From NCBI GenBank assembly GCA_041697335.1, contig JBGUGD010000031.1, forward strand, positions 32,001 to 96,000: a stretch of DNA of 64,000 nucleotides, given 5' to 3'. Origin of the DNA: Vampirovibrionaceae bacterium NZW_1234. GTDB taxonomy: Bacteria; Cyanobacteriota; Vampirovibrionia; Vampirovibrionales; JAGQHJ01. Positions within the stretch are counted from its first letter, which is position 1. Each line of letters starts with the position of its first letter. Positions 54,048 to 54,884 of this stretch are shown one piece after another. The notes under the pieces were generated by a model, which saw nothing but the letters and a program-made list of their open reading frames with translations, had not been told where the DNA came from and did no database searches. Made by a program: the position numbers and the translations under genes.

Positions 54048-54884
54048 ATGACATACTTGCCAGCCGCCTACTATTACCCCCATTACCCAGCGTACTACTC
54101 GGGCTATGGTTCTTATGGTGTAACGCCGTTTCAGACGGCTTCTACATTCGTTGAAGCCCAGAAACCCTCTCCGCCGGCAAAAGTTCGCAAAGGCCCCTAT
54201 CCGCAAAGCCATGACGAATTTCATCACGTGACCCAATGTCCGTCTCTGACCATGAAGAATACGGCCTACATTCCGCGCAAGCAGAATGTTGAGTTGCCTC
54301 CACCCAAGAATCCTTTTGTTAACGGGATTTTCAGGTATGCCGGTTACTTAAACGAATTGGGCGAAGCCTTTGTTCATCCCATGCATGCCGCCTTTACCGC
54401 CATTAATCCAAAGTGGACCGGCATGGCCCATAAAGTGGTCGATGCCACCTATAAGGCCGTCTTTGCCTATACCTGTATGGATGCCGCCTATTCGGGCGCA
54501 CAGGCTTACTTTAGAGCCCGACAAGATGGAAATAGTGAAAAGATGGCGGCCATGAAAGGACTCCAGGCCGGTGTCGGCCAAGGTATTTTCCAACTGCTTG
54601 CCAGCTATTATGTCCCGGCAGAAATTATCAAGCGCGTCTTTAACCCCATGGGAACAAAGCTGGGGATGATGCTCGGAAAAACAAAGACCATGGGTACCGT
54701 AGGCGGAACGGCTCTCAGCCTCCTGGCCATCCCGCTGATGGTCAAGGTTGTGGATCCGCTCTCGGAAAAACTGGTCCATGCCCTGTGGACCAAACCCACC
54801 AATCGCTTTCTGGAACGACGCGACCAAGGAGAAGTGGCACGCTCGTTCCATGCCCCCCATAAAGCCAACGCAGCCGTTCTATAG
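54048..54884 (+). CDS. MTFP1/MTP18-like membrane protein with Tyr/Pro-rich N-terminus
   Basis: RYAGYLNELGEAF, FQLLASYYVPAEII and TALSLLAIPLMVKVVD match the conserved blocks of eukaryotic mitochondrial MTP18. Confidence 0.8.
   Translation: MTYLPAAYYYPHYPAYYSGYGSYGVTPFQTASTFVEAQKPSPPAKVRKGPYPQSHDEFHHVTQCPSLTMKNTAYIPRKQNVELPPPKNPFVNGIFRYAGYLNELGEAFVHPMHAAFTAINPKWTGMAHKVVDATYKAVFAYTCMDAAYSGAQAYFRARQDGNSEKMAAMKGLQAGVGQGIFQLLASYYVPAEIIKRVFNPMGTKLGMMLGKTKTMGTVGGTALSLLAIPLMVKVVDPLSEKLVHALWTKPTNRFLERRDQGEVARSFHAPHKANAAVL

Follow-up and report, generated by a model that had tools for sequence, protein, structure and literature searches.

A prokaryotic branch of the mitochondrial MTP18/MTFP1 protein family in Vampirovibrionia

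We analysed 64,000 nucleotides from Vampirovibrionaceae bacterium NZW_1234 (contig JBGUGD010000031.1, positions 32,001 to 96,000; this whole stretch is called the window) and found that the gene at 54048..54884, on the + strand and with its stop codon included, encodes a protein of 278 residues that, as judged from its sequence, is almost certainly a true prokaryotic homologue of the eukaryotic MTP18/MTFP1 proteins over their whole domain. The open reading frame, with an ATG start and 278 codons for amino acids, lies exactly at the positions given by an earlier inspection of the bare letters (the sequence-only reading), which had named it a bacterial homologue of MTFP1/MTP18. The family itself was known already, as were automatic PF10558 tags on some of its bacterial members; what is new is a prokaryotic branch that is class-wide and multi-copy and has a tail and inserts of its own. 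We favour, with a probability of roughly 0.6, the reading that the product resides in the cytoplasmic membrane of the bacterium itself and is not an effector injected into other cells.

Match to the MTP18/MTFP1 family and predicted structure

The product matched the Pfam profile PF10558 (MTP18, 'Mitochondrial 18 kDa protein') with an E-value of 8.4e-08 and a score of 32.8 bits, where the curated gathering cut-off is 25, and the alignment connected residues 94-242 to profile positions 19-170 of 171, i.e. to nearly the whole domain. A six-frame search of the genome with the same profile recovered the locus at 31.4 bits. No match to PF10558 was found in 14 well-known control genomes (0/14), and a scan of the protein against NCBIfam gave nothing near any cut-off. 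The phmmer program of HMMER, run with the window protein against 1.84 billion representative proteins, returned 36 matches at E ≤ 0.001, one of which, P0020 (178 residues), provided the bridge to the eukaryotic sequences. Word-indexed searches recovered only the window protein itself and one relative when run with this protein, and at least five proteins when run with an alignment of 17 sequences and a limited number of candidates. The proteins retrieved with P0020 included: 'Mitochondrial fission process protein 1 [Diplonema papillatum]' (P0046), P0043 of Polypedilum vanderplanki and several entries named 'fission process protein 1'.

Direct comparison with these sequences gave the same picture. 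BLASTP aligned the window protein with P0046 of D. papillatum over 165 columns at 31% identity (pairwise E 1e-14; residues 25-164 of 172). The hhalign comparison of an alignment of 17 bacterial-type sequences (A1; 16 bacterial sequences and P0020) with one of 15 eukaryote-type sequences (A2) gave a probability of 100% and an E-value of 2.8e-40 over 154 columns, where the two alignments are not fully independent, P0020, which groups with the eukaryotes in trees, being present in both. Conservation among 14 eukaryotic sequences reaches 90% or more at 38 columns, and at 22 of these the window protein carries the eukaryotic residue. Fifteen positions are conserved in both domains of life: R96, G99, Y100, N102, E103, E106, Y135, Y141, D145, Q182, A185, S186, P190, P229 and D236. 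Of these, the first six are conserved in no fewer than 13 of the 14 sequences from eukaryotes and 27 of the 37 from bacteria, and D236 is invariant across all 52 aligned sequences. It is because of the BLASTP, hhalign and conserved-position evidence together that we consider the homology solid. The sequence-only reading would have been refuted by the lack of a significant profile or structural match to MTP18/MTFP1, and both PF10558 and the eukaryotic profile match significantly. That reading had rested on three blocks matching, in order, strings of the eukaryotic family; the blocks were found in that order at residues 96-108, 181-194 and 221-236, and the eukaryotic sequences that we retrieved carry very similar ones.

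The predicted helix layout agrees with this assignment. An AlphaFold2 model built from the 52-sequence alignment (mean predicted local distance difference test, pLDDT, 79.4; predicted template modelling score, pTM, 0.71) is confident for residues 90-260 (pLDDT > 90) and poorly defined for residues 1-80, and places helices at residues 94-107, 109-119, 126-159, 164-209 and 213-268. In a model of the Diplonema MTFP1 the helices are at 28-31, 33-46, 53-82, 85-123, 128-142 and 145-166. Via the BLASTP alignment the predicted helices of the two models correspond one to one, with the exception of the bacterial helix 109-119, which falls in a stretch that is absent from the eukaryotic proteins (a gap in the pairwise alignment). 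Searches of the PDB yielded no solved structure of MTFP1, and the family profile, when searched against the PDB sequences, gave chance matches only (E ≥ 0.03). Foldseek against the PDB found nothing at E ≤ 0.001. In a VIA-align structural search of 48,161 chains the best match was a designed helical bundle, whose Z of 8.9 lies in the range that is generic for helical proteins.

From the N- to the C-terminus the conserved part of the protein is thus predicted to consist of four elements. The signature block R-Y-x-G-Y-x-N-E-x-G-E-A-F with the short helix that follows it (residues 96-119; 54333..54404, +) was delineated by conservation and the AlphaFold2 model. Long helix 1 (residues 126-159; 54423..54524, +; pLDDT > 90) has a weakly hydrophobic core at 130-150 (mean hydropathy 0.54) and the conserved residues Y135, Y141 and D145. 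Long helix 2 (residues 164-209; 54537..54674, +) combines a hydrophobic core at 174-194 (KD19 hydropathy 1.03) with the block F-Q-x-x-A-S-x-x-x-P, which holds Q182, A185, S186 and P190, and long helix 3 (residues 213-268; 54684..54851, +) combines a core at 217-235 (KD19 1.76) with the block I-P-x-x-V-K-x-x-D, which holds P229 and the invariant D236. On a helical wheel the conserved positions of helix 1 (135, 138, 141, 145 and 148) lie within an arc of 140 degrees and those of helix 2 (178-190) within one of 180 degrees. That polar and acidic side chains are conserved within the helices suggests that these form a specific binding site and not just an anchor.

The window protein resembles the eukaryotic MTFP1 proteins P0046 and P0043 in whole-domain homology, in the 15 signature positions, in the order and number of its predicted helices and in its modest hydropathy, and differs from them in several respects. 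Its host is a bacterium, which has no mitochondrion; it has the extra short helix, and its first motif is followed by about 14 additional residues; ahead of the conserved arginine it carries a tail of 95 residues, against a median of 75 (range 0-144) in 37 bacterial sequences and of 28 in the 14 from eukaryotes; helices 2 and 3 are often much further apart in bacteria, with a median spacer of 60 residues and a maximum of 145, against 34 in the eukaryotes; and at clade-specific positions the eukaryotic residue is replaced: W by F at 181, G by A at 191 and N by K at 195.

The Tyr/Pro-rich, low-complexity stretch of about 90 residues that the sequence-only reading had seen in front of the domain is real and recurs in relatives. 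It comprises residues 1-95 (54048..54332, +; Pro 16%, Tyr 12%) and is predicted to be disordered (pLDDT 38-66). Its first 30 residues hold 9 Tyr, a number reached in only 4 of the 8065 30-residue windows of the other open reading frames of the window (8095 residues, background 2.5% Tyr). A hydrophobic core of the signal-peptide type was not found in the tail, where the KD15 hydropathy never exceeds 0.33 before residue 90. The phmmer alignment with homologue P0003 begins at residue 16, within the tail; the codon index of the tail (0.714) equals that of the core (0.716); a Tyr/Pro-rich N-terminal stretch is also present in the second copy of the gene in the same genome, and homologues from two other genomes of the same taxonomic family carry Tyr/Pro/Ser-rich tails. 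These features argue that the tail is translated. A database entry of 210 residues that is identical to the window protein (P0001) stems from a contig of 935 bases and is therefore no evidence for a later start.

Distribution in bacteria and direction of transfer

The family is widespread within the class Vampirovibrionia, and the Pfam model recovers only part of it. With PF10558, and with the own genome included, matches were found in 17 of 49 genomes of the order Vampirovibrionales (14 over the cut-off) and in 4 of 401 genomes of an even sample of the phylum. Among the 30 of the 36 phmmer matches that were scanned with this model, 20 were detected at E ≤ 0.01, 11 passed the cut-off and 10 gave no match. 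The bacterial profile A1 recovered the family in 136 of 401 genomes sampled from the whole class. It was present in 35 of the 48 other genomes of the order (families f1, f2 and f3: 3/4, 11/19 and 21/25), i.e. in 36 of 49 with the own genome, as well as in 99 of 189 genomes of f4, a family of the same class with genomes of 1.6-2.5 Mb, and in one of nine genomes of family f49. No match to A1 was found in the 104 genomes of family f47 or the 30 of family f48. In the phylum sample A1 matched 89 of 169 f4 genomes and none of the 231 genomes of all other families; these zero counts also serve as a specificity control. The profile searches covered the phylum of the window, and beyond it the search consisted of the single-sequence phmmer scan and the 14 control genomes (Pfam model). 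A scan of one genome per species with one narrow pattern returned one locus and says little on other phyla.

By alignment, the f4 proteins are real members of the MTP18/MTFP1 family. In three of them the three blocks flank an insert of 110-135 residues, and nine short forms, when aligned, matched the eukaryotic profile with an E-value of 2.7e-21 and A1 with one of 1.4e-20; a Pfam scan of three short forms gave no match (0/3). Two to four family matches per genome are common, some of them in tandem. Tandem or near-tandem pairs were seen in several genomes of the order (L005:1240-3288 of G011, G023 C15, G022 C3 and G018 C2). The second copy in the own genome lies on contig 34 (L038:3511-4344, -), between a DUF3352 gene and purB; it encodes 277 residues, is 21% identical to the window protein (E 3e-05) and has no Pfam match.

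The named relatives were labelled 'Vampirovibrionales bacterium', 'Vampirovibrio sp.' or 'Candidatus Melainabacteria bacterium', and the two nearest clusters in the Atlas consist of Melainabacteria hypothetical proteins, of which 15% and 61% are tagged PF10558, the third-nearest being a Chlorophyta cluster. The hypothetical proteins from metagenome-assembled genomes (MAGs) of Vampirovibrionales and Melainabacteria (e.g. MBK8190572.1, WP_373532441.1 and MDX2084736.1) share the family, the motifs and the low-complexity tails with the window protein, to which the closest bacterial relative, P0002, is 52-54% identical; these proteins have no described function and many are missed by the Pfam model. 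The literature that we searched for bacterial homologues of MTFP1/MTP18 contained no description of a relative outside the eukaryotes.

Two trees were made. The first, a careful maximum-likelihood tree, was computed from 72 rows and 208 columns, the rows being 55 bacterial and 16 eukaryote-type sequences and P0020; left out were P0001, the fragments P0048 and P0056, the near-duplicates P0053, P0054, P0082 and P0060-P0080, and open reading frames of the loci that were identical to included proteins. One branch parts all bacterial rows from the eukaryote-type rows and P0020 (support 92/96). P0002 is the partner of the window protein (96/84), within a bacterial clade of 18 rows (98/97), and the backbone, with supports of 9-41, was unresolved. 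The second was a quick tree of 90 rows, to which sequences of f4, f49 and more of the order had been added. It kept the eukaryotes as one clan (98 in the Shimodaira-Hasegawa-like approximate likelihood ratio test, SH-aLRT) and made one clan of f4 (94); the clade of the window protein, now of 19 rows, was split off at 100, and the second copy of the own genome, the f4 clan and the eukaryote clan fell together in the other, poorly resolved part. Long branches were flagged in both trees, and the eukaryote sample is small and skewed to relatives of P0020, with no sequence that is known to be green-algal. The eukaryotes form one clan, therefore a root on their stem is always possible and the trees give no direction of transfer.

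P0020 (also P0038) is itself a protein of the MTFP1 type, with 178 residues, from an NCBI MAG that is labelled only 'archaeon', on a contig of 7888 bases. Its identity to eukaryotic MTFP1 proteins is 39-42%, and in the trees its place is beside Diplonema, within the clan of the eukaryotes; it may represent a misbinned eukaryotic contig or a real archaeal copy.

The sequence-only reading had considered that the gene could have been transferred from a eukaryote, and only the recent form of that idea is excluded by our results. A recent import into this genome can be excluded on the tree evidence because the nearest relatives of the window protein are all bacterial, in the 98/97 clade. The composition of the gene (GC 0.526, GC at third codon positions 0.573, codon index 0.714) is within the range of the neighbouring genes, and the paralogy within the genome is deep; on these sequence features it is a native chromosomal gene and not a recent algal import. 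The ancient form, in which an early ancestor of the Vampirovibrionia captured MTFP1, with duplication and rapid divergence afterwards, is a possible account to which we give somewhat less than an even chance; the bacterial family would then be silent on the origin of MTFP1. Consistent with it are the finding of prokaryotic members in one class only, the long bacterial branches, the single eukaryote clan (92/96; 98 SH-aLRT) that permits rooting on its stem, and the spread of eukaryotic members over distant groups: Diplonema, an insect, a haptophyte-like cluster, the Chlorophyta cluster and Andalucia (PMC7050145). It is opposed by the fully native composition and by the bacterial diversity, which exceeds that of the sampled eukaryotes, so that midpoint rooting puts the eukaryotes inside the bacteria.

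A bacterial root of the family was also among the suggestions of the sequence-only reading. MTFP1 would then not be a eukaryotic invention: it would descend from a membrane-protein family of the Vampirovibrionia, which are non-photosynthetic relatives of the cyanobacteria, and would have passed from a Vampirovibrionia-like lineage to stem eukaryotes, which recruited it to the mitochondrial inner membrane as a protein of non-alphaproteobacterial descent, while the bacterial proteins would keep the ancestral job, the upkeep of a tight and ordered energy-coupling membrane, in a free-living bacterium. Two lineages of the class have the family, which comprises at least two deep bacterial groups, namely the 19-row clade of the window protein (100) and the rest with the second copy, f4 and the eukaryotes, and the eukaryote clan sits among bacterial clades. 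We nevertheless regard this scenario as doubtful, in view of the backbone supports of 9-41, the lack of an outgroup, the long branches, the small and biased eukaryote sample, and the failure to find the family in other families of the phylum (0/231) or in the control genomes (0/14). Our trees, which part the bacterial from the eukaryote-type sequences, cannot be rooted.

Cellular location and possible role

We consider the window protein to be probably a protein of the bacterium's own cytoplasmic membrane because of its native composition, the ordinary chromosomal neighbours of its gene and the absence of a VirB4 or TssC marker. The neighbours encode: a chorismate mutase (aroH), a regulator of the OmpR type with a histidine kinase, a GGDEF protein, SerA and an aminotransferase. 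Neither VirB4 (PF03135) nor TssC (PF05943) was matched in the own genome, which is 94.75% complete; other routes of secretion or export were not searched.

The role that we propose follows what has been reported for MTFP1. Loss of MTFP1 raises the ANT-dependent proton leak and the opening of the permeability transition pore (10.1101/2021.10.21.465262), the protein works with membrane subdomains of the prohibitin type (SPFH) and of MISO (10.1101/2025.01.05.631328), and in the Andalucia study it is an inner-membrane protein that acts 'by a poorly understood mechanism' (PMC7050145). By analogy, the bacterial protein would sit in the cytoplasmic membrane with its disordered Tyr/Pro-rich tail in the cytoplasm, and would act as a small helical membrane protein through other membrane proteins, so that the energy-coupling membrane stays tight and ordered; self-association or the recruitment of partners may be the role of the tail. 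Any specific biochemical activity would be assigned to it with low confidence. A review of MTFP1, which gives it a GTPase domain and 600-750 residues and makes no mention of bacteria (PMC12477198), does not fit a protein of about 150-180 residues and was not used.

Several observations weigh against this placement. Only one segment of the window protein, 217-235, is strongly hydrophobic and reaches a KD19 of 1.6 (1.76, compared with about 1.0 for 174-194 and about 0.5 for 130-150), and 14 of 37 bacterial homologues have no such segment; full membrane insertion is therefore not certain. The family has a patchy distribution, with no match in 13 of the order's 49 genomes, occurs in several copies and evolves fast, a pattern that would fit accessory or interaction genes too. 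All six VirB4-positive genomes of the order carry it, several with three matches, and the order's sole member in culture is a predator of an alga (PMC4451040). The known partners of MTFP1 (ANT, DRP1, LC3 and MISO) are eukaryotic, and its mechanism may not carry over. No neighbour gene was conserved beyond close relatives, and the context hence gives no pointer to a pathway.

The low hydrophobicity, together with predicted helices of 34-56 residues, longer than a bilayer crossing, and structural matches that at best are generic soluble helical bundles (Z ≤ 8.9), would also fit a peripheral or soluble helical bundle without membrane-spanning segments, linked to MTFP1 by common ancestry only. We think this unlikely: the eukaryotic members have a similar modest hydropathy in the aligned segments and are described as inner-membrane proteins (PMC7050145, 10.1101/2021.10.21.465262), and the strongly hydrophobic core of helix 3 is conserved in the bacteria, with a median of 1.52. 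The remaining suggestion of the sequence-only reading, an effector mimic directed at an organelle, turned out to be the least supported of its three. Such an effector would be delivered into a eukaryotic prey or host cell, insert in the mitochondrial inner membrane and mimic or disturb MTFP1. The concept has in its favour a eukaryote-type protein in an order with an algal predator, Vampirovibrio chlorellavorus, which preys on Chlorella and is proposed to inject proteins by means of a secretion system of type IV (PMC4451040); the several copies, variable inserts and long disordered tails of the family and its moderately hydrophobic segments would suit it, and one genus, in which five of eight genomes are VirB4-positive, often has three matches. 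VirB4 itself was found in only six genomes, from two genera, out of the 49 of the order, and by A1 the family occurs in 6/6 VirB4-positive and 30/43 VirB4-negative genomes, which means that 30 of the 36 family-positive genomes are without VirB4; by the Pfam model (3/6 versus 14/43) there is no association. The family, being carried by many VirB4-negative genomes and as common in f4, the second lineage, of small genomes (99/189), therefore does not depend on the VirB4 machinery. With a family that is broad and apparently old in the class, a genome without a match to the two secretion markers searched for and a gene that lies among housekeeping genes and not in an island, we hold delivery as an effector to be very unlikely, and residence in the bacterium's own membrane remains our preferred reading.

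Genomic surroundings and significance

The gene is preceded by an AT-rich intergenic spacer that separates it from aroH (53848..54047, +; from reading of the sequence) and presumably holds its promoter and translation start region; a motif scan and inspection by eye found no consensus sigma-70 site or clear Shine-Dalgarno sequence in this spacer, and a scan for promoters and terminators gave nothing convincing for the gene. The listed open reading frame of aroH (53320-53847, +) has a GTG start and 175 codons for amino acids, of which residues 59-175 only are covered by the chorismate mutase domain, and its true start is probably further downstream. Directly downstream of the MTP18-like gene, on the same strand, 54980-55510 (+) encodes a hydrophobic protein of 176 residues with sub-threshold Pfam hints only (DUF3792, holin-like), which was not found next to the homologues elsewhere. 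The products of 55527-56429 (-; 300 residues) and 45062-47914 (-; 950 residues) belong to no Pfam family at the thresholds used. Further away lie 41911-43263 (-), encoding a protein of 450 residues with an OLD-like TOPRIM domain, of a family that is linked to phage defence, and 48162-49379 (+), encoding an FHA-domain protein of 405 residues upstream of the two-component system. The DNA sequencing runs with the largest shares of this genome are labelled as hot-spring and microbial-mat metagenomes, and no RNA run was among those listed for it.

MTFP1 is the subject of intensive work on heart disease, cancer and the quality control of mitochondria, and we know of no molecular activity that has been established for it. 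The bacterial branch is large and diverse, which puts the direction and the timing of the movement of the gene between bacteria and eukaryotes within reach, and its divergent sequences, which number in the hundreds, narrow the essential positions down to a handful of residues. It extends the so far short list of membrane proteins of eukaryote type in the Vampirovibrionia, and its members could be tested in bacterial membranes, without the mitochondrial machinery. A bacterial origin, if true, would provide a simple bacterial system for the molecular role of MTFP1.

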